The notes below the pieces were generated by a model. That model was not told where the DNA came from. It worked only from the letters and a program-made list of their open reading frames with translations, and made no database searches. 64,000 bases of DNA from an uncultured Christensenella sp. Its GTDB lineage: Bacteria > Bacillota > Clostridia > Christensenellales > UBA1242. The position numbers and the translations under genes are program-made. Shown one piece after another: positions 30,770-64,000 of this stretch (positions are counted from its first letter, which is position 1; each line of letters opens with the position of its first letter). The stretch is from positions 1,139-65,138 of the forward strand of contig CAZVVP010000001.1 in NCBI GenBank assembly GCA_964630515.1, in the 5' to 3' direction.

Positions 30770-30857
30770 TTAAAAGCTAATAAAAAAGTTAGGAAATATT
30801 TTGGTTGTAACAACAAAGGTTGTGCAATATTATAGCCTAATATTTTAGGCAAAAAAT

Positions 30858-30900
30858 GTGGGAGAAATGTAAATCTATTAATGCATTTTGTTTATACCAC
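30858..30900 (+). promoter_or_regulatory. L1-binding-site-like structure in the rplK leader
   Basis: The structure is GTGG-GA-GAAATG...CATTTT...CCAC. Outer gtgg (30858-30861) pairs with ccac (30897-30900), and inner gaaatg pairs with catttt. The architecture and the GTGGGAGAA core are the same as at 31378. Confidence 0.4.
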
Positions 30901-30933
30901 TATATGCCACGAAAATGGCAGGAGGAAAACGCT

Positions 30934-31362: not shown

Positions 31363-31377
31363 GATTACAAAATTTAA

Positions 31378-31421
31378 GTGGGAGAATAAAAAATCCATTT
31401 TAATTTTATTCGATTAACCAC
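31378..31421 (+). promoter_or_regulatory. L1-binding-site-like structure immediately before the rplA SD
   Basis: The structure is GTGG-GA-GAATAAAA...TTTTATTC-gattaa-CCAC. Outer gtgg (31378-31381) pairs with ccac (31418-31421). A perfect 8-bp inner stem pairs 31384-31391 with 31404-31411. The SD aaaagga follows directly. Confidence 0.45.
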
Positions 31422-31438
31422 AAAAGGAAATTGAAAAT

Positions 31439-33488: not shown

Positions 33489-33642
33489 ACTAGTTTCAAA
33501 AGTTAATAACCTTCGTATAGTCTTTTTTTTTGTAAATGGACATAATTCTACATATTTTTCAAATAATAAAAATAGGTTATGAAATTGCAAAAATATTTGT
33601 TATACTAAAGTTAAGAATAATATTTATTTGAGAAATGAAATA

Positions 33643-46642: not shown

Positions 46643-47155
46643 ATGAAAAAGATTATTTTAATGCTTATTATCATGTTGTCTAGTTTAGGGTTATTTGTGG
46701 CATGTGGGAATCTGTTAGAGACAGAACAATATTTGAGAATACATATAAGAGCAAATTCTAACAGTGATGAAGACCAGAATGTTAAGTATTTAATTAAAGA
46801 TAAGGTTGTTAGTTATTTAACTCCTTACATATCAGAAAGTGAAAGCTTTGAAGATGTTGTGAATTTAATTAAAGAAAAAGAAACAGTTCTTGAATGTATG
46901 ATTGATGAAATATTGAATGAGAATGGTTTTGACTATAAAGCTAATGTACAGCTTAATAACGAATACTTTCCAACAAGAACTTACGATAATGTGACATTAG
47001 AAGGAAATTTCTATGATGCTATAATAATTAATCTTGGCGCTGGTGAGGGGGATAATTGGTGGTGTGTTGTTTATCCGCCACTTTGCTTCAAAGACACTAA
47101 AAATATAGTATACAAAAGTAAAATTGTGGAAATAATCAATCAATTTCTAAAATAA
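46643..47155 (+). CDS. spoIIR: stage II sporulation protein R
   Basis: The signal/lipobox is LSSLGLFVAC. The motifs YLRIHIRANSNSDEDQNVKYLIKDKV and GDNWWCVVYPPLCF are characteristic of SpoIIR. Confidence 0.8.
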   Translation: MKKIILMLIIMLSSLGLFVACGNLLETEQYLRIHIRANSNSDEDQNVKYLIKDKVVSYLTPYISESESFEDVVNLIKEKETVLECMIDEILNENGFDYKANVQLNNEYFPTRTYDNVTLEGNFYDAIIINLGAGEGDNWWCVVYPPLCFKDTKNIVYKSKIVEIINQFLK

Positions 47156-47159
47156 TAAA

Positions 47160-47864
47160 ATGGAGATTTTGTTAATGCAGGTTTGGTTAAAAGAGAAAGT
47201 AAATAACTTTGCAAAAATTATTTTAAGTATTTCAATTATTGTATTGGTAATTTTTGTGAGTTTAATCATGTTTCTGTTTGTAGATTTCTCAGCGAATAAA
47301 AATGTTGTATCGGCGTATAGTGAAAGTGAGGTTATACAGATACAACAGAATTTAAAAGAGCTTGGATATTTCAATGAGGAGGTTACTGGTTATTATGGAG
47401 AGATAACTAGAGGAGCTGTGTCAGATTTTCAGTACGATTATGGTTTGCCTGTAACGGGTGAAGTCGATGGTGCTACTGCGTCTGCTTTGGGGATACATTT
47501 AGGCAGTCAACAGAGCAATGATTTATATGTTTTAGCAAAGTGTATTTATGCTGAAGCTAGAGGGGAGGTTTATGAAGGACAAGTAGCAGTTGGTGCAGTA
47601 ATTCTTAATAGGGTTGCTAGTCCTGATTTTCCTAATACTATTTATGGCGTAGTATATCAGCCTTGGGCGTTTACATCTGTTAGTGATGGTCAGATGAATT
47701 TGGAGCCTGACGCAACTTCATATCAAGCAGCACAAGATGCTCTAAATGGTTGGGATCCGACTTATGGTTGCCTTTATTATTATAATCCAAATGTTGCAAC
47801 AAGTAGTTGGATTTTTGAAAGGCAAACTGTGGTCGTGATTGGAAATCATGTGTTTGCAATATAA
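47160..47864 (+). CDS. sleB: spore cortex-lytic enzyme SleB-like (TM + PG-binding domain + SleB hydrolase domain)
   Basis: PG_binding_1-like region: IQQNLKELGYFNEEVTGYYGEITRGAVSDFQYDYGLPVTGEVDG. Hydrolase_2 region: AKCIYAEARGEVYEGQVAVGAVILNRVASPDFPNTIYGVVYQPWAFTSV. An alternative start is ATG 47175. Confidence 0.85.
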   Translation: MEILLMQVWLKEKVNNFAKIILSISIIVLVIFVSLIMFLFVDFSANKNVVSAYSESEVIQIQQNLKELGYFNEEVTGYYGEITRGAVSDFQYDYGLPVTGEVDGATASALGIHLGSQQSNDLYVLAKCIYAEARGEVYEGQVAVGAVILNRVASPDFPNTIYGVVYQPWAFTSVSDGQMNLEPDATSYQAAQDALNGWDPTYGCLYYYNPNVATSSWIFERQTVVVIGNHVFAI

Positions 47865-47935
47865 AGAAATTTGTGACAACTGTATAAATACAATTGTCAA
47901 AAAATATATTGATAATGTCAAAATTTGGGTAATAT

Positions 47936-49258
47936 ATGAATAAAAAAAGTAAAGCATTTGTGATAGTTAGCATGGCAATATTAGGTGTTATAATAGTTGC
48001 TTCTTGTGTATTGTTAATATTAACTTTAGTCAAAAATAATGAGTACAAAAATAGTTTAGAGAACCAGTATCAAAGAAGTTATATGCAATTGCTAGAAAAT
48101 GTAGATGATATAGAAGTGGATTTAAGTAAGCTTATAGCGACCACATCGCATGATTCACAAAAAAGCATACTTCAAAGTGTGTATACAAATTGTGTTTTGG
48201 CGGGTGAAAATATTTCAAGTATGCCAGTTAGTTTGGACTCTTTAGTTAATGTTAATAATGTTATCAATAAAGTGGGAGGTTATGTGTATAGTCTAATCCT
48301 TAATGATACAGTTGTTGAAGGAGAGGTTTTGACAAGCATTGAGGGTTTGCATGAAAATTTGTCAGTTATAAAGTATGACCTAAACAAAGGATACTCTGAT
48401 GTGCTTAACAATAGTGTTGTCTTAACTGAGGTAACTTATGGTGAAGAAGGTAGTAGTTTTACTGCTGGTCTTGTCGGTGGAGGAAACTCCTATTCTTCTG
48501 TGCCAACTCTTATCTATGATGGGCCGTTTTCAGAAAGTGTTATGAATAAAGAGCCAATACTTTTGGAAGAGATTATAACTCAAGAAGAAGCATATATACT
48601 TGTTTCGGAGCTTGCTGAAAAATGGGAGGGGTATGAAATAGAGTATTTGGGTACTACGCTTGGCAAACTGGATACTTATAACTACAAGCTTTCTAGTGGA
48701 GAAAATGAACTATTTGTGCAGATATTACAGAATGGTGGAAAGCTTCTTTCGGCAAACTCATATGGAAATTATGAAGGTGAATATATTGACGAAGTTGGTG
48801 CTATTAAATTAGCCAAAAACATAGCGTTTGATTTTGGTTATGGTGATATGGTTGAGGTGTGGACCCAGACTGTTGGGAATATAATTTATATCAATCTTGC
48901 TCCTATAGAAGATGGTGTAATATATTACAGCGATTTGGTGAAAGTTAAAATAGATTTGAATGGTGGTGAAATTGTAGGTTGGGAAGGAACCAATTATATT
49001 TACAACCATCATGAAAGAGGTGCTTACACTTCTTCTTTAAGTATTGTGGAGGCACAATATCTGTTGAGTGATAGTTTAGAAGTGCAAGAGCGAAATTATT
49101 GTGTTATTCCAAACGAATATATAGGGGAGACTAATGCGTTTGAGTATAAATGTGTTTGGTCGGGATATACTTATTATGTGTATCTTGACTCAAATACAGG
49201 AAAAGAGCTAAATATTATGCGTGTAATTGAGACAGATAATGGAAATTTACTTGCCTAG
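47936..49258 (+). CDS. ypeB: germination protein YpeB
   Basis: An N-terminal TM is followed by NSLENQYQRSYMQLLENVDDIEVDLSKL, typical of the YpeB N-domain. The C-terminus has PepSY-like repeats. The gene is immediately downstream of sleB. Confidence 0.75.
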   Translation: MNKKSKAFVIVSMAILGVIIVASCVLLILTLVKNNEYKNSLENQYQRSYMQLLENVDDIEVDLSKLIATTSHDSQKSILQSVYTNCVLAGENISSMPVSLDSLVNVNNVINKVGGYVYSLILNDTVVEGEVLTSIEGLHENLSVIKYDLNKGYSDVLNNSVVLTEVTYGEEGSSFTAGLVGGGNSYSSVPTLIYDGPFSESVMNKEPILLEEIITQEEAYILVSELAEKWEGYEIEYLGTTLGKLDTYNYKLSSGENELFVQILQNGGKLLSANSYGNYEGEYIDEVGAIKLAKNIAFDFGYGDMVEVWTQTVGNIIYINLAPIEDGVIYYSDLVKVKIDLNGGEIVGWEGTNYIYNHHERGAYTSSLSIVEAQYLLSDSLEVQERNYCVIPNEYIGETNAFEYKCVWSGYTYYVYLDSNTGKELNIMRVIETDNGNLLA

Positions 49259-49280
49259 TTATGCACATTTTTCACGTTTT

Positions 49281-49289
49281 TGTGGATAA
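49281..49289 (-). promoter_or_regulatory. perfect DnaA-box sequence (TTATCCACA on the minus strand) upstream of giant gene 2
   Basis: tgtggataa lies at 49281-49289. With flanks, ttgtggataac is identical to 403-414 upstream of giant gene 1. Confidence 0.4.
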
Positions 49290-49303
49290 CTAAAATTTCA
49301 ATT

Positions 49304-49346
49304 TTAATTATGGTGAATTTTCACCATAATTAATTTTTTATTTTTT
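49304..49346 (+). terminator. rho-independent terminator after ypeB
   Basis: ttaattatggtgaa (49304-49317) pairs with ttcaccataattaa (49320-49333), then ttttttattttttt. Confidence 0.8.
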
Positions 49347-49365
49347 TAAATTTCTTTGTAATAAT

Positions 49366-49394
49366 TTGACCGATAATGTCGATTGTTATATAAT
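49366..49394 (+). promoter_or_regulatory. sigma-A promoter of giant gene 2
   Basis: TTGACC (49366-49371), 17-nt spacer, TATAAT (49389-49394). Confidence 0.65.
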
Positions 49395-49489
49395 ACCTAT
49401 ATAATAAAAAAATTATTATTTTTTATTTCGATGTTTGTGATTATAAAATTGCAAAATTAACAAAAAATACAAAATGAGGAAAAGGAAAA

Positions 49490-52400
49490 ATGAGAAACAT
49501 TTTGAAAGGATTGAAAAAGGTCTTTAGCGTAATTGCGGTTTTATTGTCTGCGGTTATAAGTTGCAGTTTGGTTGCTTGTTCTTGTAGTGATGACCCTTAT
49601 GCTAATATGAAGATTAAGAGTGTATCGATTGAGGCTTTTGCTGAAGGGCAAGTCAATGTTGATAATGAAAATAATAGGATTATCTTGCAGGATAGTGGGC
49701 TGAATGTTCAAGCCAACTACTTCTATCTTGATGTTTTGATAGAAGGGTATAATGGGGATAGGGAGGATATTGTTAGTATTTCTCCTGCTATTAGTTATGA
49801 GGGCTATGTAACGTTTATTAAATACGACTATTATTCCAATGGTGGATATAGAGGAGTTAAGGCTTTGTTTAACGCCATTGTTGGTGTTGAAGAAATAAAG
49901 TTTGATATTATAACTCTTGAAGGCATGATAATTGATACCTATAGCATGGAAATTGTTAATCCTATTGAAGATTTTAGTTTCTCATCAACTACAGTTCCTG
50001 TTATAAAAGGTCAGGAAAATGTAATATACGAAGCTTCAACTACTTCAAAGTACATAAACTACGTTCCAGGCAATACAACTCAGCGTGATGTGAAGTTATA
50101 TTTTAGTGATACTGATAAAGAAAACGATGGAATATATGACTTTTTGCAAGTAGAAGGAAATGAGGGAATTGTTTATCAAAATTATCAGCTATCTAATAAC
50201 AAAACTGTAGTCAAATATAAACAAAACAATGTTTTAATAGATGTATTAAGTGTTGTTGATGGAGTTTTGAAAGTTGAAAATAGCGAATTTGTGCCAGTTA
50301 AGTTTAAAGTAACAGGTTCGGTTAATAAGATTGATGGCGATGTAATAGTAAGAGAAGTTATTTTTGAAGCTTTAGAAAAAATTAATGTAAATAATGTTGG
50401 TGTTTATAATATATTGGGTGATATTGATGGTGATGGAATTGAAGATAAAGATGCGCTAGGGGTTGTAGAAACTAATAGTTCTAGTAAGACTTTTAGGTTG
50501 TATTTGCCTAACAATACTTCATCAATAGTTGATCCAAAATATAAGAAAGCAAAAGTTGAGTTTCTGTATAATGCAAATGTGTTAAAAGCTGACAAAGATA
50601 ATACAGATTATGAGTATTCGTTAGATAGGGTTGGGGTAGATGATTCTTTTGTTAGATGCTTATATGATGAAGAAAGGAAAAATGGAGTATATGAAATTTC
50701 TCACACAATATCGATAGACCAAAGCTATACTCTAGAGTTTAAGCTTTTCTATGCTGGATATTCTAACTATTTTGATGGTGTTACCGTTAAAATTGTGGTG
50801 GATATTTGTGAATATCCTGATGGAATTAGATTGTATGAGAATATTAATGATGAAATTAATGAATTGGTAGAAAACGCTACAAATAAAGATTCAATAGTTG
50901 TCTATAGTGATTATGCTGGGCAGTCTCAGGGTGCTAAAGTAATTGCAAAAGTCGTTGCAGAAGATTATGATGATACAACTGATGATGAATTGACTGCTAG
51001 TAAGTTCTCTGTTTCTGTTGTTAAGAAAGTAGAAAACAACTATGGAAATTTGACATATGAAAATTTGACAACTGACGAATTAAATAATATTCATATAAAG
51101 AATATGTTAGACAATTCTAACTTAATTGTAGCTCCTAACTCTGCTCTTCCATTAGTAGATAGTGGAAGTACTATTCTTGTTACAATTGATAATGAGATTA
51201 GTGAAGATTTAAGCAAAGCATTGGCTTTAAAGTTTGAGTCCACAGTTAATGCAAGTGGATATGTGGTAGAAAGATATATAAATATTGAGTTTGTTAGGGG
51301 AAATATTGGTTGGACAGAAAGTAGTGTTAGAAGATATATAGACTTTAATAGTACATATTTGTATGATGTTGCAAAATCTCCCGATGATCAAGTATATTTC
51401 AAACTTCCATTAAGTGATATTGCTACTTGGTCTGGAGCTAATGTTGAGACATTGAAAGGTTTCTTGTCTGAATGTGAATGTGAGGATAAGAATAGTTGTG
51501 CATGTGATAGTGCAAAAAAGATAGAAAAGATACAATTTAGGATATTTGAGAGTGATTTAAATAATCCAGTAATTAAACATAATGAGACTGGTAAAGATTA
51601 TATCTATATATCAGATAGTAGGAGTGATACTGCTGGACATATCAGTTCTCCGTATCTAAATATTCTTTTCTATAATAATAATCTTGGTAGTTGTAATATA
51701 GAGATTATGCTTCCTAATGGAAAATCCTGTATTATTACTCTTTATGTGTATTATAACTTACCTGGTGAGACTTATTTGAGTTTGGGTACAGATTATACTA
51801 AAACAGAAATTAAGTATTCTGAAGATTATGATACAGAAATCTATAAAAATGGTATAAAAGCTGAAAATCAATTTTTGACAGCAGTTCTAGGTGATAGGCA
51901 ATCATTTATTGTGAATTTGCCAATGAATGTTGGGAAAACGATAGTTAAAGAATTTGAATATAACACTATTCCTGATGGGATGACAATGAGGATAAAGTCT
52001 AATAATTCTTCTGTTGCATCAATTGATAGTGATGGAATTATTACTATTGTTGGAATTCCTACTAACACTAATAAAGACTTCTTAATTCAAGTAGAATTGA
52101 CAGGAAGAAGTCAAAAAGTTGAAAATAAAGGAGCTGCTAATGAGTATATAGATTATACTTCGACAGAATCTCAAGAATTTACTTTTGAGATTAAGGTAGT
52201 AGTTCAGACTCCAATTAAAAATATTGCATTGGATTCTACCAAGAGTGCAATATTTACACGTGATACACTTAACTATTTCGGTACAGACAATGAGTTTAGT
52301 AAGAAAGGTATTGCAACCTATTCGTTAAAGAATTTAACCAATGGAGACATTATAGATCCAAACAAAATTCTTTGGAATTTCTATTATGATGATAGTATAT

Positions 52401-55400
52401 TCAAAATAGATGTGTCTAAAGATGGTGCTGGTGAATATTTGATAAATATGTCTGTTGAAGGTGCTGGTAGTTTTGGAGAGATAAATGCTGCTACGAATGC
52501 GGGATTGTCTAGTCTGCTTGATGAAACTTATTATAGTTATTTCTATTATTTCGATTTTACACAGACATTAGGTGGAGAATCTTTCTATTTAAGAATGTAT
52601 GTTGTGCCAAAGAAAGATAATTTTGGAAATCCTGATTGGCAAAATATTGTGATTTGGGTAGAAAGAACAGATAATTCTGGAAATTTATATAAAGAAAAGT
52701 CGATAATAAATAATATTACATACCAAGTTAAGTTACAGATTGAGACAATAGTAGAAGAAACGTATACAAACTTCAGTAACTATACTGTAGAGAATACTCT
52801 TAGCAAGAAGTCCAATTTGGCTGTTGAGCCAAATTTAAGAATTGCAGACTTAGTTCCTGTTATGCAAGGTGATACTGTAAGTTTTGACTTTAGAGAATTT
52901 GAAAAAGATGTGGACTATGTCTTAGATGGCGATAATTATATAATGAATGAGACTGAAAATACAGTTAAAGTTATTGATTATACTATTTTAGATGCACATT
53001 CAAATAGTCCAAAGATTGCAAATCCTATATCTTTAAACAATCAAAATGTTAATAGGGAAATTGTTTGTGTTAAGAGTTCTGATGATAGAATTTCAGTTTC
53101 AGTTGATACAGAAAAACAACAAATTAAGATACAAATTCTAAAGCTATCTTCTCTTGATGCTACAAATTATATTAATCCTAATTTCAAAATTACATTACAA
53201 GTTAAAGGTAGCCAGTATGATGTTAATTCTTATGCTGTACAAGAAGTTATAAATGTAGTTGTAGAAGATGGAAAGAATAATCCATTTAGTATTAAAAATC
53301 AACAACAATTACAAGGTATTAACAATAGCCTAGGTTCAAATTATGTGTTAGTAGAAGATATTGTATTAAATAATACATTTGTACCTATTGGTTCGGAAAA
53401 GGAACCATTTACTGGAAGTATTTCTGGAAAAAGAACAGTTACAGATTCCACTGCTGTGGCAGATTATAGCATTAGTGGATTTAATTATACTGCTGTAGTA
53501 GATGAAAAGATTGAATTTGGAGAATATAGTACTGGAGCTAATGGCAGAATAGGTATCGGAATTTTTGCTTATGCTGTTGGCGCTAAAATAAGTAATATTG
53601 TGTTATCTGACATTAATATTAACATTTCGACAGTAAGTGGAACGAACCCTTCTGGGGTAGATATTGTTAATACACAACTTGCTGTTGGGTCTTTGGTTGG
53701 TTGGGCTGAGAAATGTTTAATCAATTATATTTTCGTTGATGATGGTAATAAATTACAAAATTTAGATGGTGAGTTTGTATCAAATGTTTCAAGTAAGCTT
53801 AATTTAGAAGAGTCAAGAAAGACAGTTTCTGGTATTAAATATATAGAAGGAAATATGTCTAAAGCTTATCTTGGTGGCTTGGCAGGTTATGTATCATCAT
53901 CTGTAGAGATGAAGAATAATGCTGTAAAAATACTAATATCCGATTATAACAGTAAAGCAGAAGCTGTAGGTGGTCTAGCTGGTTATGTTATAGAAGCAAA
54001 TAATGATTATAGGAGTATAGAGTTTGCTGATACAAATGATGGAATAAGTGACCAATTTGGCAATTCTGATATAATCGCGCTTATTAATCCACAATTATAC
54101 AAAGAAACTATTAGCAATATTGTTTTAGCTGGAAGTAACTTGGGTGGTGTTGTAGGTGAATTGGTTGGAAATTATGGAATAGCCAATGCAGGAGTTAGAG
54201 CGGTTATATTTGGTTCTAGCAATATAGGTGGTGTTGTAGGTAAATTAACAGAAAGTGCTCAAAGTAAGAGCCCGATTGTGCAAAATTCTAAAGTGCTTCC
54301 ACTCCTAATTGGTGTTAGTGCAGTTGGTGGAATTGTAGGAAATAATGATTCTAAAGGAGAATTAAATTACAATAAAGTTCAATTCCTTGAATATGAGGAC
54401 GCTTATGCTTACTATAATAGTGGAATTGTTGGGCAATATCAGATTGGTTCGATTGTGGGAAGTAATAGTGCTTCTGCTAGTGGAAAGTACAACTCAGCTT
54501 ATTCTTATGTTGTAGCTAACATGATAGCAGAGTCTTTTAATACAACTTCAAGTAAAGAAATTAAGTACTTTGGGGATATTGTTTATCATGTATTTGATAA
54601 AGATTCTGCAAATAACGGTTCAATCAACCCAATCTGTGGAACTAATGATAATTTAGAGTATAGTTTTGCTAAACTAAATATAAACTTTAAGGCGCTAGAT
54701 GGAAATATAGAATTAAATATTGACTCAACTTCTCCAATGTATTGCACAGTGCTTAATAGTGATGATGAGTTCTTAAGTATAAACAATACTATTGACAGAA
54801 ATATTTATCAAGTAGATAATATGGACGACTATGGATTCGGTGGAACTTATAATAATGAGCAATATTATCAATATAAGATAGATGGAACTAATTATTCATA
54901 TGTATTTGTGGTTAATAAAGATAAGACTATTTATGGCGTAGATGGAGTTTATCAACTTGTACTTACTGTGGATTTGCCACCAGAAAGTGTTGAGTTGGTT
55001 AAGCCAGAAATTGATGGTGACTTATATGATGTAGAAGATGCGACTGAGTATACCATTGCAATTACAATGTATGAGTTGGTTAGTGATGACTTGGACAGTG
55101 ACGGAACTGTTTCAACAACAGAATTGATATTCTTAGACTATATCAAAGAATTGTTTGAAGCTAAGAATACATACAAGCTAGAAGAGTTGGCAAATATTAA
55201 TTATCTTCCTAAATTTATTCAAGAGTCAAGTATGGTTTATACCATTATCTCTGGAGATGGCGTTGTAGATATTTATAAGAACTCTGAAGGTGGATATTCT
55301 GTTCAAGCTAAAGAAAGTGGTACAGCGGTGCTTCAATTAACAAATCTATATAACAAGGATATACAAACTATATTAAATATCAAGGTTGTGAGAAAAGTAA

Positions 55401-58400
55401 GCGACATTGATATGCATGTTTTGTCGCAAAATATTGAGACAAGAAATATTACACTAATTAAAGAGACTTCAAATAAATTGTATGTAGATTTATTCTCAGA
55501 ATATTTTGATGGAAATGAGAATTTCTCAAAAATATTTGGTGATATAGACTTAATAGAAAATGAATCAACCAAAGTAGGATTAAGAATGTTCTTGCTTACA
55601 GATGCTGTTGACAAAAGTGGAAGTATTATCCATGAGGCAGGAAACATTGAAAGTTATATCTATGACAACTATTCTTCATATTTCAATGTAAACAATTTGT
55701 CATTTAAACATTTACAAACTCAAGATGGAAAGTATCTCATTTACATTGATTGTGATGCTACAGATCATACATTTATTTCTGCATTGAAGAAATTAGAAGG
55801 AAGTATTTATGTTTGGGCTATGCCTTACATTTATACTGGAGTCAGCACAACTGGGACAGAAAAAGTTGTATTGCAGAACTTCTATACAATAAATAAAGAA
55901 AATAAGGTAGAAATCAAAAGTGATTTTTATAAAAACCCACTTGGTAGAGAGTTTTCTATTGATATTGTTAACGGAACAAGTGATATAACAACTCTTGATG
56001 TTAATGCTGAAGGAACTCCTAAATATGCAACTAAGTTCTCAGTTACAATAGAAACTGATGACCCGACTTCTGTACTTTACTTCTATGTAAATAGAGGAAC
56101 ACATCAATATGAAATAAGCGGACATAATAGGGTAACAAGCATTACAAGCAGAATCAACAATCTAAGCTCTCTTACTACATTTACAAAGAACGGTACAATT
56201 TATACTCTTGGTGGAGATGTCTATTTGTATAGGCTAGGGGATAGAAATTTAAGCAACTTTAGTTTTAGATTTGATAAATATCAAGTAAAACTTCTTGATG
56301 TTACTGATGAAATCGACACTTATGGATATATAACATTTAATTTCCAAATAGAAGTTCTAGATGCGTACAAGTATAATTGTTATGAGGAAGAGAATTATAC
56401 AATCAATTTCTTAACAAATATTGTTGTAGATAAAGATGGAGCTTATGAGTATTTGGGAACAACAAGTGTTTCTTACAAGATGAAGCCACAGTCTTTGGAG
56501 AGTACGGAGATTAATCACTATGTAGATGTTGTTGAGAGAACTTATAACATAGAAGAAGGTAAAGAAACAGTAGAGTACGAAGTTGATTTGTCTTTGCCAA
56601 GCAATACTTTAATTATTGGATATTCTGGAATGTTGCAGGTTAATCTTTATCCTGGATATTCTAAAGTGGATTATGTAGAAATTACTAGTTCTTCTATTAA
56701 TAATGTGTATATTCAATTTGAACAATTAGTTGAAGAGACAGATTTAAATAAGGAAAATGTAACTTCAGATAATTATGTTTCCAAACAATATTATTCTGCA
56801 TATCCTGAAAGAATGACTATAACTAATGGCATTAGATTAAATAATGCTAGTAATGTATATAGAAATAGTGGTGAAGATAAATACGATTTTGAAGGTATAT
56901 ACTATGTCAAAACTCATATCGGAACAATTGTCGATGAAACTAAAACATTTACAGTTACCATTAACTACTTTAAAGATGGCAAGGTTATAAAAACAGAAAC
57001 TATTAATATTTCTCCGGTTATTCCTCCTAGTATAGAAATGACTATTAATGGCGCAAGTAATTCTCCAGTAGCTATTGGAACAGATATTGATATTAATATT
57101 TCTACAAGTAACATTCTAGAAAAAATTGAAGTTGAGCTTACTAAGCCTGGAGAAAGTAGTGCTTCTTTTGGAGTAGATGCAATAAATGATTTTATTGTTG
57201 AATCTTTAGGTGGAACAAATGATACAATACTAGAAAGCTTAATTGATGCTAGATATATGACATCAATTGGAACAGATAAGTATAACTTAAATCTAATGAT
57301 TAAATATAATAAAGAGTTGATTGGTGCAAAGGCAAAAATTACTCTAACAGTTAAAAAAGTTATTAATAACAAAGTTTACAGAGTACCTTCAACTGTTGAA
57401 ATTCAATTTGCATTGTTTGTTGTTGATAGTATTTCGGTTGATGGTGTTGAAGATGGTGTATATAAGGGTCTATTTAATCAAGCTTATGATTTAGAAATTA
57501 AGATTGATGCAACATATTTTGATAATGATAAATTCAAAAGAATTGGAGTTTCTGAATCTGAGGTTAATTATATAGAGTCTCAAATCAAATTGCTTGAGGC
57601 AAGGATAACTTCGTCCGGTCTTGCTTCTGACGGAATAGGGGAAGATGAGAATCATTCGACCAAGACATGGTTTGTTAAGAACTCTATAGGACAATACAAT
57701 AACCTTTCTATTATGCAATCATACTATAGTTTCGTTGTAAGAAATTCTAGCTTTGATGTGTCATATATGCCTAATAGTGCGGGTACTTATACAACAAAAA
57801 CTTTTAGTACTTTGAAATTTAGAAATAATGTTCTTAATACACAAGACTCTATACTTGCACAAACTGTGCTAGTATACTCTTCGCTTGATGTTTATGGGGA
57901 GAGTGTTGCTGGTACTGGTGTCGCTAAATCAGTAAGTGGAATATATGTACTTAGTGATTATGAAGACATGATAGTTGATGAAGAGGGAATGTATCAAGAT
58001 AAAAAAGAATCGTTTAGATACAACTACACAGTAGAATTTACCTTTGAGATGGATAAACTATCTAATGAAGAGAATCCTATTCCAATTTATTCTGAAGAAG
58101 AGTTAATCAATATGTCAGAGGGTGTGTCATATATCCTTATGGCAGATTTAGAGGTTGAGAATTGGTCACCTTTAAATACAAAGATTACAAGTCTTGACGG
58201 TAATGGTTATGTAATTAGGATTAATTCTTTTGCCGATTTGGTTGTTACAGAAAATAATGAAACTGAGAATGCGATAGGATTATTTGGAACTGTCGATGCG
58301 GGAACTTTGCTTAAGAATATTATTATTGAACTTCCTGCTAATCCTATTGTTCAACCAGACAATGAAAAGTTCTATGAAAATAGCGTTAGTAATCCAACTT

Positions 58401-61400
58401 CTGATATACTAGTTAGTATCGGAAAAGTAACAGAGTTTAGTTATGGAACTGTTGCTGGAATTAATAATGGAACTATAACTAATGCAATAGTTATAAATAA
58501 TGCTGATAGTTACAGATATGAAAGAGATAGCTTGCTATATGGCGAAAATGAACTAAGTCTACAAGAGTTTGAAGAAAGGTTAGATAATTATTATTATACA
58601 AGAGTTATAGAGCTTATCGAAAATTATAATTATTATTCTGATAGAACATTGACTTCTGTTTATATTAAATCAGATTGTGAAGATACTAACCAAACTAACA
58701 TTAAAGCTGGTGGACTTGTAGGAATTAATAACGGATATATTACAAATAGTGCAGTTGAGAATGTTTCATTAATTGCACCATTCTATGTAGGCGGGTTTGT
58801 CTGTGATAATACAGGAAAAGTTAGTTCTTCATATTTCAAAAATGGTAATGTTATAAACAACAAAGGTAATGAGACAATTTTTAGTGGAACTGCAGGTTTT
58901 GTTGTAAATAATACTGGTGAAATTGCTTATTCTTATGTTGAGGGAAGTAACACATCTTCCAATTTGGAAATTGTCGATTATGTAAGATTTGTTGATGGCA
59001 AACCTGAGAAAGAATTTACAGAGAAGAAATTTGAACTAAAAGGGCTTAAAGCATCAACTTTGGCAGATTTTGTTGGGTTTAATTATTCTTATGCTACAGA
59101 TGATGAAAAAGAAATATTTAAGCTAAGAAACTTTGGCAACGTTGTATATTCTAATAAGCAAGCATCTGGCTTTGTATATTCTAATAAAGGTTCTGTCACA
59201 GATAGTTATTCTAATATTGTAATCAATGGAGAAAGAACTTCTGGTTTTGTGTTCTATAACGAAGCAAATGCAGTCATTGAGTCGACCTATACTATGTCAA
59301 GTATTCATTCTGGAAACGATAAACATAGCCCATTTGCTGGAACAGTAGTTGAGGGCGTTGGATTAAAGTCATTGAATACTGGTGAAATTTCTAATTCTTA
59401 CTATTTGCAAGTAGGTTATGAGGACTATATTACTTTTGAAGAAGAGAATAGTGGTGTTATAAAACAAAAAGGAATAAAAATCTCCAATGAAGAGTATGAC
59501 AATGGTGAGTATTCTTATATTAACGATAAAGGCGAGACAAAAATTGAATCGATAAGCAACAAAAACGATTATCAAGCTATTAATGAGAATTCTGAAAACA
59601 ACTCAGGATATATCCATAAAGACTATATTGATACATTCGAAGATTTGGGTGATGGACTAAGTAAGAGTGTATATGATTTCAGAACACACGAATCGTTCGT
59701 AAGTTTTGCATTTAACGATAGCTTAGAGGAAAATGGAGAAGATATTGTTAGTTCTGTATGGTTTATTCCGACCGACAGAATAACTAATACAACAGAGGGT
59801 GAAGGTAAGATATTAAAGTCTTATTTCAAGAATACAAATTATACGACCTACGCTCCTCAACTTGTTTCTGCAAACCTAAGAACCACTAGTATTAAGTATG
59901 GTAACTTTATAGAGCCATTACAACAAGATGCTGATATCTATAAGATATTAGAATTGATGAACGATGATATGGCGATAAGCGTTGCTGGTGATATCTTGAA
60001 ATCTGTAAATGATTATATATCAACTAAGAGCGCAGATATAAATAACGCGGGGTATAAATCTAACGAAATCGCAACAATTTATTCTTATATGTATTTGTAT
60101 ATTGCTTATCAAAATTTTGCAGCTAAAGATGTTGTTGAAATTGAAGAGGATAAATACAAGACATGGTTATATCCAGAATTGTCTAAGTTAAGAGTTGCTG
60201 GTGCTACATTTAATAATGAATTAAGTCTTGCTATAAATTGCAAAGCAGATATAATTGATGCGCTTAGCGCTACTGAAGATAATATTTTAACAAAAATCAA
60301 TTCTTATGTAGCAAATATTGTTAGTGAAGAGTTAACTACACCTGATAAGATAATTACTTGGATTAACAAAGTTCAAAAACTTCTTGATACACTTATTTAT
60401 CAGATAAATAGAGTTAATCAAGTTGAAGAGGGTGTAATTACTGCTTATAGTTATTCTAATTTAACAAAAAATGATGCAGGGGTTAATTTGATATATGGAG
60501 AAAGTGTACTTAATCCATATTTGGTTGATACTGCAGAGGACTTTAACATTTATGGTAAACAAATTAACGAAAAGGGTGAATATACAGGTAGTGGTCAATT
60601 AGACAAATCCATGAGAATTATTAAAGATATAACCTTTGGAGAGCTAGACTCTGCGGTTAAGACTTATGATGTTGTGTTCTATGGTGACTTGGAAGGAAAT
60701 AATATGAATATGAATAATATTCGTATTACTGCTGAGACAAATATAGATTCAGATAAGAAAGTAGACAGCATTGGATTGTTTAAGAGTTTAGGTTTAGATG
60801 ATGACGATGATGTATATTACGCATATATCAGAAATCTTAACTTATATATTGATTACGTACAAGCAAACGCTATAACATATGTAGGTGGACTTGCTGGTAA
60901 GATTGATTATGGTAGAATATATAATATTTCTATCAACAAACAAGGTAATCAAACAGGTTCTGGAATATCTGGAGCAAATGTTGTAGGTGGACTTGCTGGA
61001 TTTGTTTCCGGAAATAGTAGATTAACAAATATTATAAGTGATATTAATGTACAAGCTAACTTCTTATTATCTATCAGTGGCATTGGAGAAAACTTATTTA
61101 ATGTAGATGGTACAAGAAAGAATGTTAACATTGGAACAGAAATTTATGGCAAGAATAAAACTAGCGACTTTGGGTTAATTACTTTAGATAATATTTCAGA
61201 TGCTACAAGCAGAAGTTATTCTACAGCAAATCAATTTAATTTATATATTCCTTATTCTTCAGATTTGACAAGAATTTCATATGCTGGAGGTATTGCAGGA
61301 ATTGTTATTTCTGTCGAAGGTTATGATTTTACAGTTACTGGTGCTAGATTTAAAGGAAGTAATATAGTTGGTGGTGAAGTTGTTGGAGGATTGTTTGGCT

Positions 61401-64000
61401 TCTTAGGTAACGATGTAATTCTTCTTAATAGTGAAGTTATTGTGTCAAGCGGAATGCAACTTAAATCTTCAGCTATTGCTGGTGGCTTAGTTGGACATAG
61501 TTTAGGTAAGATTGAAAGGTCTTATGTTCAGAACGCTGACCAAGATTTATTAGATGCTAATCTATATGCAAATGTTCAGAAAGCGTCTACAACAGCAAAG
61601 AATTTCTACAATGTTTATAACGGCACAAATATAGTTAATGAGGTTACAAACTTCTTTGGCGGAAATGCTCACTATATTGGTGGCTTGATTGGTTTTGCTC
61701 ATGGTTCAGTTCTAAGAACATCATATAACAGGGTAGATGTTTCAAATATTAACTCCAAATATGCTGGTGGTGTTATAGGTTTAAGCTTAGGGGCGGATAT
61801 TGATGATGTATACACTACTGCTAGTGTATATTCATACAGAGCTTATGGTGGCACCATTGGTATACAGACGATTCTTGAAGATATAACTGTTGAGTCTGAA
61901 ACTTACAAGATGCTTTATAATGCGTACAATGATGAAGATGGTGTAGATAATCAAGTATATCATATATATAACCAAATAGGATACTTGAAAGCGTTCTGCG
62001 ATGAAGAGCCTTTGTCAACCGCGAATGATAATTCTGATATACTTAATATTGGAAGCCTAAACTCTATGAATATTTGGAAACAAGCACATAAGAATCAAGA
62101 TAGAGAACAATATAAGACTTCCGTAGCTCCAAGAGCGTTTATTGGTTCTTTTGTAGGTTACTCTACTTGTTTCAATAATGTAGAAACAACTACTTGGTGC
62201 AGTATTTATGATACTTTGGATAGAGTTCAGAGTGAATATATCTACTTTAGTCAAGCATTTAAGTTTAACGATACTCTAAATAAAGATAGCGAAACTGAAT
62301 TCTTGAGCGAAGTGGGAAATGCTCATACTTCATATTTAGAAAACAAATATGATTCTAAATATGCTACAGAAGGAGAGTATTATACTTTAAATACTAATTT
62401 ACCAAAAAATGGTACTCCAGTATTAGAAAAAGGTAAGATATATACTCTTCAAGAAATTAAAAAGGAAGCTGAAGGTGCAAACGATAATGGTTCTGGTAGT
62501 GTATGGTATGAAGGTGAAGAAATTGCAACTTTTGCTTTCAAAATATCTAATAGTGTAAAATACTATAACGGAACTATATTCCAAGGATTCTCTGGCGATA
62601 TAAATACTGAGAAAACCACAACAGCGGTTATCAACAGATTTAGTAGAATGCAATTGTTTGGAAGCTTAAGAACCCTAAAAGAATTTGTAAAAGGTAAGTA
62701 TATCTTAAATGAGACAAGTGCTTTAGATTTCGCTTATTATAGTGGAAATATGAGCACTGTCAAGAGTGGAGATATTGCTTATGACTCTGAATCTAATTAC
62801 AAACTTCCATATGTTTATGAAAACTTTAGTAAAGAGCTTTGGTATGGTGTCGAAATGACCTCAACTGAACCAGGAATTGATGCTAATAGGAAGAATGAAG
62901 AGCAGTATGTGTTCCCACATAGAAGATTTGTAACATATAAGAAAGTTATTTATGTTTATGATAGATATGATTTGACAGACAATGTTTTAGACTATCCTGA
63001 TGCGACCTATATCATCATGAACGATGTTGATTTAAGTGAAGGACTTAATAACTGGAATCCATTAAATAATGAAAAAGTTCCATTTACAGGAATTTTGCGT
63101 AGCAATATAGATTACTCTTCAATTGATGGTACTTATGCAAACTATGCCTTGTATAATATGAGATACAATGGTCAAGTTTCTGGTGATTCTTTTGGATTAT
63201 TTGCTTATGTTGATGGTGCACAATTCACAGGCTTTAGAATTGTTGTTGATTATGTAAAGATTAGTAGCTTTAGCAATCCTGATGATCCAAGTGCTGGTAT
63301 ATTATATGGAAAGCAAGCTTCCTTAAGAGAAGTTAACATTAAGAATGTAATGATTGAGGGTACTTATACAACTGGTACAGTTAATGATGTGACAAGTTAT
63401 TACAGACCAACAGAATATAAAGAATGTGAAGATGGTATTTGTCCATACTATACCCATACTGATGAAGGTGTAGTAATAACATCTCTTCATCTTACAGAAA
63501 CTCATAGAGGAATTTATGAAGTAAGTGGTGCTAAATATATAGGTGGCTTAATTGGTTATGGTCAAAATGTTAGAATGGAGTATCAAGAGGTTAATGATAG
63601 TGATCCGGAATTTGTAGAAGAGAAATATATATATCATGTTGTGAACAAGTTAGCAATTAATACTTATGACAACAATGCAAGTGAAGTATACATAGGTGGT
63701 GTTGCAGGAAGAATTGACAACACTAATTCTAGAAGTATTAAGGGATTGAGACTACTTGATACAGAAGTTAATGCAACTAAAGAGATGTCGGCAGGTGCTT
63801 ATCAACTAGCTGTAGGTGGGCTGTTTGGTTATGCTTATGGTGATACTTCTGGAAGTTCAATTAGTGAAAGCGTATTTGTTGGAAGCTCATCAATCTTTAG
63901 TCAAAGTGTTGATATTGTGGTTGTTAAATATGATGAAGGTGGAAATATCACAGGTGAGGAAATCGTTAAATTAACCGTTACTAAACAAGCAGGCATAAAC
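49490..64000 (+). CDS. giant surface lipoprotein, 3'-truncated by the window edge (at least 4,837 codons), with Big_2-like and four GLUG-type modules
   Basis: The ATG at 49490 follows gaggaaaagga. The N-terminus is MRNILKGLKKVFSVIAVLLSAVISCSLVAC|S (lipobox). I hand-translated at ten points between 49490 and 63962. All were in the same frame (positions = 2 mod 3), had no stops, and the frame ends in phase at 64000. The ORF track shows no + strand ORF in 14.5 kb, as expected for an ORF with no stop. Confidence 0.9.
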   Translation, partial: MRNILKGLKKVFSVIAVLLSAVISCSLVACSCSDDPYANMKIKSVSIEAFAEGQVNVDNENNRIILQDSGLNVQANYFYLDVLIEGYNGDREDIVSISPAISYEGYVTFIKYDYYSNGGYRGVKALFNAIVGVEEIKFDIITLEGMIIDTYSMEIVNPIEDFSFSSTTVPVIKGQENVIYEASTTSKYINYVPGNTTQRDVKLYFSDTDKENDGIYDFLQVEGNEGIVYQNYQLSNNKTVVKYKQNNVLIDVLSVVDGVLKVENSEFVPVKFKVTGSVNKIDGDVIVREVIFEALEKINVNNVGVYNILGDIDGDGIEDKDALGVVETNSSSKTFRLYLPNNTSSIVDPKYKKAKVEFLYNANVLKADKDNTDYEYSLDRVGVDDSFVRCLYDEERKNGVYEISHTISIDQSYTLEFKLFYAGYSNYFDGVTVKIVVDICEYPDGIRLYENINDEINELVENATNKDSIVVYSDYAGQSQGAKVIAKVVAEDYDDTTDDELTASKFSVSVVKKVENNYGNLTYENLTTDELNNIHIKNMLDNSNLIVAPNSALPLVDSGSTILVTIDNEISEDLSKALALKFESTVNASGYVVERYINIEFVRGNIGWTESSVRRYIDFNSTYLYDVAKSPDDQVYFKLPLSDIATWSGANVETLKGFLSECECEDKNSCACDSAKKIEKIQFRIFESDLNNPVIKHNETGKDYIYISDSRSDTAGHISSPYLNILFYNNNLGSCNIEIMLPNGKSCIITLYVYYNLPGETYLSLGTDYTKTEIKYSEDYDTEIYKNGIKAENQFLTAVLGDRQSFIVNLPMNVGKTIVKEFEYNTIPDGMTMRIKSNNSSVASIDSDGIITIVGIPTNTNKDFLIQVELTGRSQKVENKGAANEYIDYTSTESQEFTFEIKVVVQTPIKNIALDSTKSAIFTRDTLNYFGTDNEFSKKGIATYSLKNLTNGDIIDPNKILWNFYYDDSIFKIDVSKDGAGEYLINMSVEGAGSFGEINAATNAGLSSLLDETYYSYFYYFDFTQTLGGESFYLRMYVVPKKDNFGNPDWQNIVIWVERTDNSGNLYKEKSIINNITYQVKLQIETIVEETYTNFSNYTVENTLSKKSNLAVEPNLRIADLVPVMQGDTVSFDFREFEKDVDYVLDGDNYIMNETENTVKVIDYTILDAHSNSPKIANPISLNNQNVNREIVCVKSSDDRISVSVDTEKQQIKIQILKLSSLDATNYINPNFKITLQVKGSQYDVNSYAVQEVINVVVEDGKNNPFSIKNQQQLQGINNSLGSNYVLVEDIVLNNTFVPIGSEKEPFTGSISGKRTVTDSTAVADYSISGFNYTAVVDEKIEFGEYSTGANGRIGIGIFAYAVGAKISNIVLSDININISTVSGTNPSGVDIVNTQLAVGSLVGWAEKCLINYIFVDDGNKLQNLDGEFVSNVSSKLNLEESRKTVSGIKYIEGNMSKAYLGGLAGYVSSSVEMKNNAVKILISDYNSKAEAVGGLAGYVIEANNDYRSIEFADTNDGISDQFGNSDIIALINPQLYKETISNIVLAGSNLGGVVGELVGNYGIANAGVRAVIFGSSNIGGVVGKLTESAQSKSPIVQNSKVLPLLIGVSAVGGIVGNNDSKGELNYNKVQFLEYEDAYAYYNSGIVGQYQIGSIVGSNSASASGKYNSAYSYVVANMIAESFNTTSSKEIKYFGDIVYHVFDKDSANNGSINPICGTNDNLEYSFAKLNINFKALDGNIELNIDSTSPMYCTVLNSDDEFLSINNTIDRNIYQVDNMDDYGFGGTYNNEQYYQYKIDGTNYSYVFVVNKDKTIYGVDGVYQLVLTVDLPPESVELVKPEIDGDLYDVEDATEYTIAITMYELVSDDLDSDGTVSTTELIFLDYIKELFEAKNTYKLEELANINYLPKFIQESSMVYTIISGDGVVDIYKNSEGGYSVQAKESGTAVLQLTNLYNKDIQTILNIKVVRKVSDIDMHVLSQNIETRNITLIKETSNKLYVDLFSEYFDGNENFSKIFGDIDLIENESTKVGLRMFLLTDAVDKSGSIIHEAGNIESYIYDNYSSYFNVNNLSFKHLQTQDGKYLIYIDCDATDHTFISALKKLEGSIYVWAMPYIYTGVSTTGTEKVVLQNFYTINKENKVEIKSDFYKNPLGREFSIDIVNGTSDITTLDVNAEGTPKYATKFSVTIETDDPTSVLYFYVNRGTHQYEISGHNRVTSITSRINNLSSLTTFTKNGTIYTLGGDVYLYRLGDRNLSNFSFRFDKYQVKLLDVTDEIDTYGYITFNFQIEVLDAYKYNCYEEENYTINFLTNIVVDKDGAYEYLGTTSVSYKMKPQSLESTEINHYVDVVERTYNIEEGKETVEYEVDLSLPSNTLIIGYSGMLQVNLYPGYSKVDYVEITSSSINNVYIQFEQLVEETDLNKENVTSDNYVSKQYYSAYPERMTITNGIRLNNASNVYRNSGEDKYDFEGIYYVKTHIGTIVDETKTFTVTINYFKDGKVIKTETINISPVIPPSIEMTINGASNSPVAIGTDIDINISTSNILEKIEVELTKPGESSASFGVDAINDFIVESLGGTNDTILESLIDARYMTSIGTDKYNLNLMIKYNKELIGAKAKITLTVKKVINNKVYRVPSTVEIQFALFVVDSISVDGVEDGVYKGLFNQAYDLEIKIDATYFDNDKFKRIGVSESEVNYIESQIKLLEARITSSGLASDGIGEDENHSTKTWFVKNSIGQYNNLSIMQSYYSFVVRNSSFDVSYMPNSAGTYTTKTFSTLKFRNNVLNTQDSILAQTVLVYSSLDVYGESVAGTGVAKSVSGIYVLSDYEDMIVDEEGMYQDKKESFRYNYTVEFTFEMDKLSNEENPIPIYSEEELINMSEGVSYILMADLEVENWSPLNTKITSLDGNGYVIRINSFADLVVTENNETENAIGLFGTVDAGTLLKNIIIELPANPIVQPDNEKFYENSVSNPTSDILVSIGKVTEFSYGTVAGINNGTITNAIVINNADSYRYERDSLLYGENELSLQEFEERLDNYYYTRVIELIENYNYYSDRTLTSVYIKSDCEDTNQTNIKAGGLVGINNGYITNSAVENVSLIAPFYVGGFVCDNTGKVSSSYFKNGNVINNKGNETIFSGTAGFVVNNTGEIAYSYVEGSNTSSNLEIVDYVRFVDGKPEKEFTEKKFELKGLKASTLADFVGFNYSYATDDEKEIFKLRNFGNVVYSNKQASGFVYSNKGSVTDSYSNIVINGERTSGFVFYNEANAVIESTYTMSSIHSGNDKHSPFAGTVVEGVGLKSLNTGEISNSYYLQVGYEDYITFEEENSGVIKQKGIKISNEEYDNGEYSYINDKGETKIESISNKNDYQAINENSENNSGYIHKDYIDTFEDLGDGLSKSVYDFRTHESFVSFAFNDSLEENGEDIVSSVWFIPTDRITNTTEGEGKILKSYFKNTNYTTYAPQLVSANLRTTSIKYGNFIEPLQQDADIYKILELMNDDMAISVAGDILKSVNDYISTKSADINNAGYKSNEIATIYSYMYLYIAYQNFAAKDVVEIEEDKYKTWLYPELSKLRVAGATFNNELSLAINCKADIIDALSATEDNILTKINSYVANIVSEELTTPDKIITWINKVQKLLDTLIYQINRVNQVEEGVITAYSYSNLTKNDAGVNLIYGESVLNPYLVDTAEDFNIYGKQINEKGEYTGSGQLDKSMRIIKDITFGELDSAVKTYDVVFYGDLEGNNMNMNNIRITAETNIDSDKKVDSIGLFKSLGLDDDDDVYYAYIRNLNLYIDYVQANAITYVGGLAGKIDYGRIYNISINKQGNQTGSGISGANVVGGLAGFVSGNSRLTNIISDINVQANFLLSISGIGENLFNVDGTRKNVNIGTEIYGKNKTSDFGLITLDNISDATSRSYSTANQFNLYIPYSSDLTRISYAGGIAGIVISVEGYDFTVTGARFKGSNIVGGEVVGGLFGFLGNDVILLNSEVIVSSGMQLKSSAIAGGLVGHSLGKIERSYVQNADQDLLDANLYANVQKASTTAKNFYNVYNGTNIVNEVTNFFGGNAHYIGGLIGFAHGSVLRTSYNRVDVSNINSKYAGGVIGLSLGADIDDVYTTASVYSYRAYGGTIGIQTILEDITVESETYKMLYNAYNDEDGVDNQVYHIYNQIGYLKAFCDEEPLSTANDNSDILNIGSLNSMNIWKQAHKNQDREQYKTSVAPRAFIGSFVGYSTCFNNVETTTWCSIYDTLDRVQSEYIYFSQAFKFNDTLNKDSETEFLSEVGNAHTSYLENKYDSKYATEGEYYTLNTNLPKNGTPVLEKGKIYTLQEIKKEAEGANDNGSGSVWYEGEEIATFAFKISNSVKYYNGTIFQGFSGDINTEKTTTAVINRFSRMQLFGSLRTLKEFVKGKYILNETSALDFAYYSGNMSTVKSGDIAYDSESNYKLPYVYENFSKELWYGVEMTSTEPGIDANRKNEEQYVFPHRRFVTYKKVIYVYDRYDLTDNVLDYPDATYIIMNDVDLSEGLNNWNPLNNEKVPFTGILRSNIDYSSIDGTYANYALYNMRYNGQVSGDSFGLFAYVDGAQFTGFRIVVDYVKISSFSNPDDPSAGILYGKQASLREVNIKNVMIEGTYTTGTVNDVTSYYRPTEYKECEDGICPYYTHTDEGVVITSLHLTETHRGIYEVSGAKYIGGLIGYGQNVRMEYQEVNDSDPEFVEEKYIYHVVNKLAINTYDNNASEVYIGGVAGRIDNTNSRSIKGLRLLDTEVNATKEMSAGAYQLAVGGLFGYAYGDTSGSSISESVFVGSSSIFSQSVDIVVVKYDEGGNITGEEIVKLTVTKQAGIN
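53279..54520 (+). other. GLUG-type module A of giant protein 2
   Basis: The entry is NPFSIKNQQQLQGINNSLGSNYVLVEDIVLNNTFVPIGSEKEPFTGSISG. GLUG turns follow: AVGSLVGWA, YLGGLAGYV, AVGGLAGYV, NLGGVVGEL, NIGGVVGKL and AVGGIVGNN. Confidence 0.7.
58073..59350 (+). other. GLUG-type module B of giant protein 2
   Basis: The entry is NPIPIYSEEELINMSEGVSYILMADLEVENWSPLNTKITSLDGNGYVIRI. Turns follow: AIGLFGTV, KAGGLVGINNGYITNS, YVGGFVCDNTGKV and ASGFVYSNKGSVTDS. Confidence 0.65.
60512..61870 (+). other. GLUG-type module C of giant protein 2
   Basis: The entry is NPYLVDTAEDFNIYGKQ...MRIIKDITFG. Turns follow: YVGGLAGKI, VVGGLAGFV, YAGGIAGIV, VVGGLFGFL, IAGGLVGHS, YIGGLIGFA and YAGGVIGLS. Confidence 0.65.
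62944..64000 (+). other. GLUG-type module D of giant protein 2 (cut by window edge)
   Basis: The entry is VYDRYDLTDNVLDYPDATYIIMNDVDLSEGLNNWNPLNNEKVPFTGILRSN. Turns follow: SFGLFAYV, YIGGLIGYG, YIGGVAGRI and AVGGLFGYA. Confidence 0.65.

Follow-up and report, generated by a model that had tools for sequence, protein, structure and literature searches.

The 64-kb stretch of DNA analysed here (the window; 64,000 nucleotides from contig CAZVVP010000001.1 of an uncultured Christensenella sp.) ends within a very long gene, referred to as giant2, which starts at an ATG at position 49490 and is still open at the last letter. The part in the window is the genuine, native and intact 5′ portion of a chromosomal gene. 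By analogy with the giant surface proteins of Gram-positive bacteria, the product is probably a lipid-anchored fibrous surface protein that serves gut Clostridia as an adhesin or glycan binder. The uninterrupted frame is accompanied by native codon usage, a conserved gene order, a conserved promoter and lipobox, an N-terminal region modelled with an Ig-like fold, and a series of GLUG motifs.

An uninterrupted frame that runs off the window

Translation of positions 49490-64000 on the plus strand (14,511 nt) gives exactly 4,837 codons without a stop, in phase at position 64000. In the remaining five frames these 14.5 kb carry 224-797 stops each, and the open frame is therefore not a product of chance. 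A preliminary description of this DNA had proposed a single stop-free frame from this ATG; full translation bears this out, and a search for an in-frame stop or a change of frame between 49490 and 64000 found neither. The closest in-frame stop upstream is a TGA at 49475, after which the ATG at 49490 is the first start codon. An alternative genetic code was considered and rejected, as there is no TGA, TAG or TAA in frame and the tryptophan residues are encoded by TGG. The length of giant2 is a lower bound (at least 4,837 codons), with the C-terminus and true length lying beyond the window. That the gene extends past 64000 follows from the alignment with a homologue (L006, see below), which goes on beyond the last residue of the window, inside the fourth of the modules described below (M4).

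The list of open reading frames (ORFs) of at least 100 amino acids drawn up for the window has no plus-strand entry across 49490-64000. By its own description the ORF lister omits frames that run off either end of the source, so that giant2 is missing because no stop lies inside the window, as the preliminary description had supposed. This blind spot concealed 23% of the window. Unless edge-open frames are listed too, giant genes will be missed systematically. The window contains a second very long gene, giant1 (661-18000), encoding 5,779 amino acids, and the next-largest listed ORF encodes 895. Together the two giants cover 31.85 of the 64 kb (49.8%), in agreement with the earlier statements that they occupy about half of the window and that both products are far longer than any other encoded there.

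The composition of giant2 is that of its surroundings. Its relative synonymous codon usage correlates with that of the other genes of the window with r = 0.97 (0.76 and 0.85 for the off-frames), its GC content and third-position GC content (GC3) equal those of its neighbours, and GC is uniform along the gene. Misassembly at repeats, a concern raised in the preliminary description, was examined from the sequence side. DNA self-comparison of giant2 revealed no notable tandem or dispersed repeats and no tandem repeat longer than 39 nt, and protein self-comparison (blastp and phmmer) found no internal repeats except for a weak similarity between modules M1 and M4 (phmmer, E = 1e-5). Since repeats are absent from both DNA and protein, repeat-driven collapse or expansion of the assembly is of no concern for giant2. 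The start of the gene is also found in an independent assembly: Logan contig L001 (run SRR14307658, 3,126 bp) is 100% identical to window positions 47061-50186, and runs from sleB through ypeB and the intergenic region into giant2, of which it covers the first 232 codons.

A transcription unit of its own downstream of ypeB

The genes spoIIR, sleB and ypeB lie directly upstream of giant2. An intrinsic terminator behind ypeB (Table 1), whose hairpin sequence is nearly invariant in the orthologous loci L003 and L004, sets giant2 apart from the spoIIR-sleB-ypeB unit. Beyond it lies the promoter that the preliminary description had assigned to giant2. In this region four promoter-like sites were observed against 4.3 expected in shuffled sequences, so a match to the consensus is by itself weak evidence. 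The assignment is supported because the element is conserved across loci: the ypeB-giant2 spacer aligns among the window, L003 and L004 in the order terminator, TTGAC-17/18-TATAAT, A/T-rich leader and ribosome-binding site, and the L006 homologue has a terminator and a TTGACT-17-TATAAT of its own upstream. From its sequence the promoter is predicted to be of the vegetative sigma-A type. The purine-rich Shine–Dalgarno sequence noted earlier was also recovered, and AAGGAAAA aligns with it in L003.

A conserved, predicted lipoprotein signal

The N-terminus of giant2 reads MRNILKGLKKVFSVIAVLLSAVISCSLVAC, in agreement with the preliminary description, which had taken it for a lipoprotein signal. 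The PROSITE rule for bacterial lipoproteins (PS51257) calls for a lysine or arginine in the first seven residues, for a run of six uncharged residues ahead of [LIVMFWSTAG]2-[LIVMFYSTAGCQ]-[AGS]-C, and for the cysteine to fall at positions 15-35. In giant2 the basic residues are R2 and K6, and the pattern fits Cys25, Cys30 and Cys32, of which Cys30 alone aligns with the single cysteine of the N-termini of the homologues L006 and P0018. The rule is also satisfied in P0016, P0017, L004, L005 and L006 with the cysteine aligned, and a C-(S/G)...DPY..MKI motif follows in all of these. Residues 1-30 are the sole strongly hydrophobic segment of the visible protein. On these grounds the product of giant2 is predicted to be a lipoprotein, and the earlier claim stands as a sequence prediction.

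A gene for the lipidating enzyme Lgt (PF01790, E = 2.7e-46) lies in the window at 27140-28003; no lspA was seen in this window. The 4,837 visible residues of giant2 contain no LPXTG motif (LP.[TSA]G); the C-terminus lies beyond the window.

Ig-like domains and GLUG-type modules

The mature visible chain has a mass of at least 535 kDa and is acidic (pI ~4.5). It opens with a region found in close orthologues only, and four modules (M1-M4) follow (Table 1). The AlphaFold2 (AF2) model of residues 31-310 has a mean pLDDT of 71.8, rising to ~90 for residues 40-165, and shows an Ig-like fold. In a Foldseek search it gave 21 PDB matches at an E-value of 1e-3 or better, the best being domains 6-7 of the S-layer protein SbsC (E = 3e-7), then Ig tandems of titin (Z1Z2) and cadherin. 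Further along the N-terminal region, a Cys-rich patch, ECECEDKNSCACDS (51479-51520; residues 664-677), is partly or wholly missing from the orthologues P0016 and P0015.

The preliminary description had proposed a HMMER run against Pfam, the outcome of which depended on the length of the query. Pfam and NCBIfam scans of the whole giant2 protein returned nothing, with no match to the GLUG model at E up to 0.1. When the protein was scanned in 600-residue pieces the GLUG motif (PF07581) was the only recurring family, with one piece above the cut-off (61106-62905; 26.5 bits against a cut-off of 20.5, E = 7.5e-6, three stretches) and four further pieces at 7.9-17.1 bits. Very long proteins can thus hide short-motif families from whole-protein scans. 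Seventeen GG[LIV][AV]G motifs are clustered in the four modules, at spacings of 27-34 residues or multiples of this. M1 has weak Pfam Glug matches and is conserved in P0015 and P0016. M2, also with a weak Glug match, aligns by blastp with P0001, P0002, P0020 and the gene upstream of the L006 homologue at 28-30% identity (E = 1e-23 to 1e-42). The whole M2-linker-M3 segment (residues ~2830-4130, ~1,300 residues) recurs in these four and in L002. The relatives P0019-P0021 carry PF07581. A repeat-built giant adhesin of the Ebh, Bap or RTX type was considered and rejected, as there are no near-identical tandem domain arrays.

The GLUG modules most likely fold as right-handed β-helices. The AF2 model of M3 (residues 3650-4140, from a four-sequence alignment) is all-β with short strands and of low confidence (pLDDT 47, pTM 0.57). 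The top 50 Foldseek neighbours of this model are almost all right-handed parallel β-helix proteins, none of them significant (best E = 0.36). The IgA1 protease of Gemella haemolysans (7uvk) comes first, then tailspikes, pectate lyases and a serine-rich repeat protein (SRRP). Searches of PDB sequences with phmmer and two profile searches gave nothing credible for giant2, and a literature search found nothing linking GLUG with a β-helix.

The β-helix is the fold of pectate lyases, polygalacturonases and phage tailspike depolymerases, and on this model giant2 could be a surface-tethered array of polysaccharide-degrading or -modifying enzymes, each β-helix module being a diverged glycanase or lyase that attacks glycans of plants or of the host in the gut. 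The neighbours of M3 do include polygalacturonases, pectate and alginate lyases, GH110, GH136 and tailspike depolymerases, and the names of related loci suggest animal-gut metagenomes. However, those matches are not significant (E at least 0.36), the best neighbour of M3 is the non-catalytic GLUG domain of the IgA1 protease, and the 600-residue pieces gave no glycoside hydrolase or lyase match in Pfam, NCBIfam or PDB sequences, even at E up to 10. An enzymatic array is therefore considered unlikely.

Table 1. Location of giant2, its upstream signals and the parts of its product, in window coordinates.
Feature	Position	Strand	Description
ypeB intrinsic terminator	49304..49333	+	Hairpin of 13 pairs and T-run, TTTTTTATTT; from a terminator scan
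Sigma-A-type promoter (predicted)	49366..49394	+	TTGACC-17-TATAAT; 11/12 consensus positions
Ribosome-binding site	49476..49486	+	Purine-rich, GAGGAAAAGGA; direct reading
giant2 coding sequence, 5′ part	49490..64000	+	4,837 codons, no stop; cut by the window end inside M4
Lipoprotein signal peptide (predicted), residues 1-30	49490..49579	+	Basic n-region, hydrophobic core, lipobox L-V-A-C; Cys30 predicted to be lipidated
N-terminal region, residues 31-1261	49580..53272	+	Matches close orthologues only; opens with tandem Ig-like β-sandwich domains (modelled)
M1, residues ~1262-1700	53273..54589	+	GLUG-type, putative β-helix; five GG[LIV][AV]G motifs 28-58 residues apart
M2, residues ~2860-3330	58067..59479	+	Opening half of the M2-linker-M3 cassette, which other large Clostridia proteins also carry
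M3, residues ~3675-4130	60512..61879	+	GLUG-type, putative β-helix; Pfam Glug 26.5 bits, eight GGxxG motifs
M4, residues ~4486-4837 and beyond	62945..64000	+	GLUG-type; three GGxxG motifs; truncated by the window end

Homologues of giant2

When the first 1,200 residues were searched exhaustively with HMMER against 1.84 billion representative proteins, only four matches came back (P0015-P0018). Their contigs, together with two loci of a genome collection, served for the comparison of loci below. A word-indexed search with the same residues found no match, a negative that is unreliable because the exhaustive search later recovered these four. Weak relatives are hypothetical proteins labelled ‘MAG: Clostridia bacterium’. 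Collinear homologues are present on five other Clostridia metagenome contigs (L003-L007), at 21-38% identity over up to ~4,780 residues. The longest is that of L006 (Clostridiales bacterium SIG395, a 110-kb contig), where a frame of at least 4,909 codons (9920-24646), still open at the end of the locus, is collinear with residues 5-4780 at 21-35% identity. L005 (35% GC) has a single open frame of 2,511 codons that runs off its contig and is collinear with residues 1-2500 at 34% identity. L003 is 99.8% identical to L005 and has one frameshift, which, given its absence from so close a relative, is an error or a strain variant. L007 (32.5% GC) is collinear with residues 1049-4277 and has one in-frame TAA (9755-9757).

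L004 (28% GC) carries, in this order, a 264-residue gene, spoIIR, sleB, ypeB and the giant gene. The neighbours are 48-76% identical to those of the window and the giant itself 36%. L004 thus keeps the spoIIR-sleB-ypeB-giant order of the window, which L003 and L005 retain in part. Between orthologous loci the giant diverges faster (33-38% identity) than its neighbours (48-76%), which fits an exposed surface protein. In the 9486-9625 region of L004 the orthologue ends, after ~1,830 residues, at an apparent domain border, with an unrelated membrane ORF behind it (MNNKFQKLVAPGMRLY...); the orthologue is either a naturally short form or part of a chimeric scaffold. In L006 the homologue is the second of two tandem giants, the upstream frame (3-9719) being open over at least 3,239 codons and containing the M2-linker-M3 cassette. 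L002 holds a 17.1-kb single frame (1-17107) with only two stops (TAG 4984, TGA 9007). Homology crosses the stops of both L002 and L007, which must therefore reflect assembly errors, pseudogenization or read-through.

Other searches were negative. A scan of genome contigs with the last 600 visible residues gave no match, two scans of JGI metagenomes revealed no relatives, tblastn of residues 2830-4130 against phage and plasmid collections found no match, and a PHROGs scan gave only three marginal matches (E above 3e-3), the families concerned having no known function. A phage or plasmid tail fibre or depolymerase was accordingly rejected: tblastn of these residues found no phage or plasmid match, the PHROGs matches are marginal, and the context is one of chromosomal housekeeping and sporulation genes.

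It might be argued that giant2 arose through misassembly, or is a pseudogene in decay whose frame is by chance still open in the window. The frameshift and stops in homologues from other metagenome assemblies would fit such an origin, as would the absence of the giant2 protein itself from the searched protein collection, in which the proteins of its neighbours are present. Against this stand a frame free of stops over 14.5 kb where the other frames have hundreds, native codon usage, the lack of repeats that could mislead an assembler, the identical gene start in L001, collinear conservation in L006 down to 21-35% identity, and the absence of the L003 frameshift from L005. Taken together, these make an artefact or pseudogene extremely improbable.

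A model for the giant2 protein

If giant2 encodes a lipid-anchored surface fibre, as we favour, the gene would be transcribed alone from its near-consensus sigma-A promoter just past the ypeB terminator, and its product would probably be exported by Sec. Lgt, encoded in the window, would add diacylglycerol to Cys30, before which signal peptidase II would then cut. The mature protein would be held by its N-terminus on the outer face of the cytoplasmic membrane, and the extended chain, by analogy with Gram-positive giant surface proteins, would most likely project through and past the wall as a fibre bearing several β-helix modules. These modules would bind glycans or other surfaces and so mediate adhesion or aggregation in the gut habitat. 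Should the lipid anchor and surface location prove true, giant2 would probably be a main interface of these gut Clostridia with their surroundings.

The conserved position behind spoIIR, sleB and ypeB might also suggest a structural protein of the envelope or spore, such as an S-layer-like coat or a germination-linked scaffold, and there is a resemblance between the N-terminal domains and two S-layer proteins, SbsC and EA1. However, giant2 has its own predicted vegetative sigma-A promoter, isolated by a terminator, with no sporulation-sigma pattern; the L006 homologue is placed after another giant gene and not after ypeB; and a Pfam scan of the visible pieces found no SLH or other S-layer anchoring domain. 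Such a role is less probable still than that of an enzyme array. Long β-helical filaments with C-terminal toxins are known from other bacteria (CdiA, Rhs-type systems), and with its C-terminus beyond the window giant2 could be the delivery stalk of a polymorphic or contact-dependent toxin, the visible 4,837 residues forming only the filament. This is very unlikely: no FHA, Rhs, LXG or pre-toxin domain was detected in the visible part, in the relative P0020, whose frame does run to a stop, no toxin or immunity context is recognizable at the end, and the predicted N-terminal lipid anchor argues against release.

Several observations weigh against a lipid-anchored adhesive fibre. For about three-quarters of the protein neither a family nor a relative of solved structure was detected, the GLUG match is seen in the 600-residue pieces and not in the whole-protein hmmscan, and the M3 model, besides its low pLDDT, has no significant structural match. 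The frame is broken in some homologues (by one frameshift in L003, one TAA in L007 and two stops in L002); these breaks may be assembly errors, or the family could be one that decays easily. Finally, the part of the protein beyond the window may contain a second anchor, or a catalytic or toxin domain.

A bolder proposal, to which we would give only a small chance, is that giant2 represents a distinct and almost unsampled family of non-repetitive lipoproteins of at least 5,000 residues, confined to a small clade of spore-forming gut Clostridia, in which several different β-helix modules are carried on one lipid-anchored chain. The protein would then be more than a simple adhesin, acting as a surface organelle of multiple specificities that binds or cuts several glycans, with M2-linker-M3 as a mobile functional core that it has in common with other large proteins. 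If so, these proteins would rank with the largest predicted lipoproteins of all bacteria.

Other features of the window

The window, of 31% GC, comes from the chromosome of an uncultured low-GC member of the Clostridia (Firmicutes) that forms endospores. Apart from the genes already mentioned it contains divIVA, nusG, rplA, rplJ and rplL with an L10 leader, and an aminotransferase gene. The rplJ-rplL pair with its leader (Rfam RF00557, 62 bits; 21241-22332) lies ~8 kb upstream of nusG-rplK-rplA (30047-32119), so that the two parts of the usual nusG-rplKAJL order are separated and stand in inverted sequence. Three ORFs of 680-853 amino acids have no Pfam match (24926-26968 and 33628-36096 on the plus strand, 36953-39514 on the minus strand).

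The product of giant1, encoded on the plus strand, has an N-terminal transmembrane anchor and no lipobox. A Pfam scan of both halves found no match, ~300 residues are duplicated internally (residues 4800-5300), and the protein forms a singleton cluster in a collection of 15 billion proteins. Paralogy of giant1 and giant2 was rejected, as self-comparison with blastp and phmmer showed no similarity between them. Directly downstream of giant1, positions 18429-21116 (+) encode an 895-residue protein in which an ABC ATPase is fused to an FtsX-type permease.

Comparison with known giant surface proteins

Bacteria are well known to make giant surface proteins, and surveys exist of proteins longer than 5,000 amino acids (PMC11573180). 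The giant2 protein is best filed with the giant surface proteins, with predicted roles and no characterized relative. The nearest structural likeness in the N-terminal region is to SbsC of Geobacillus stearothermophilus (domains 6-7, 4uj8 and 5fty), which similarly contains tandem Ig-like β-sandwiches (E = 3e-7, probability 1.0). The resemblance does not go beyond a common fold (12% identity, TM score ~0.25-0.29), and giant2, unlike SbsC, has no SLH or secondary cell wall polymer (SCWP)-binding domain in its visible part.

With GLUG proteins (PF07581; the G. haemolysans IgA1 protease, 7uvk) giant2 has in common GGLxG motifs about every 30 residues. Its modules also open in the same manner as that of P0021, a classical GLUG protein, with a sequence of the type ‘NP..I.....L..I......Y.L..DI.L’. 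In contrast to the protease, the visible part of giant2 has no protease or catalytic domain and comprises four very diverged modules over at least 4,837 residues, and its predicted anchor is an N-terminal lipid rather than an LPXTG motif. The match to 7uvk is itself weak (fold E = 0.36; nothing by PDB sequence search). In the serine-rich repeat adhesins (Lactobacillus reuteri SRRP, 5nxk) a right-handed β-solenoid is the ligand-binding unit of a large Gram-positive adhesin. The Foldseek search with the M3 model also turned up 5nxk, although the match is not significant, and giant2 differs in having no serine-rich repeats and, in its visible part, no LPXTG motif.

The Apilactobacillus kunkeei proteins Giant1-5 are extracellular Firmicute proteins, 3,000-8,000 amino acids long, with an N-terminal export signal and β-solenoids thought to bind glycans or cells (PMC12863079). 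Each combines one N-terminal solenoid with a long rod of α-helical repeats and an SH3b-like domain at the C-terminus, and attachment is loose (PMC12863079). As with the closely spaced giant genes of A. kunkeei, the window and L006 each hold two giants. Compared by description, giant2 is unlike the kunkeei proteins in being non-repetitive, in having at least four solenoid-type modules and in its lipobox. Giant genes of gut Clostridia encoding 10,000-30,000 amino acids, with repeats such as RCC1, β-propellers, dockerin and leucine-rich repeats (LRR), have also been described from metagenomes of mammalian guts, where contig ends often truncate them (West-Roberts et al., bioRxiv 10.1101/2023.11.21.568195). 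Like these, giant2 is a very long gene of uncultured gut Clostridia that is cut, here by the end of the window, but its visible part has no repeats and no RCC1, β-propeller, dockerin or LRR domains.

The giants of metagenome assemblies are usually fragmented, and a contiguous stretch of at least 14.5 kb with a defined promoter and start is for that reason of use as a reference when the rest of the family is assembled and annotated. Three traits set giant2 apart from the systems above, namely that it is non-repetitive, that its lipobox is conserved, and that it carries several diverged GLUG modules. To the known giant surface proteins it adds a conserved, non-repetitive family whose first ~1,200 residues have only four relatives among the 1.84 billion proteins searched.

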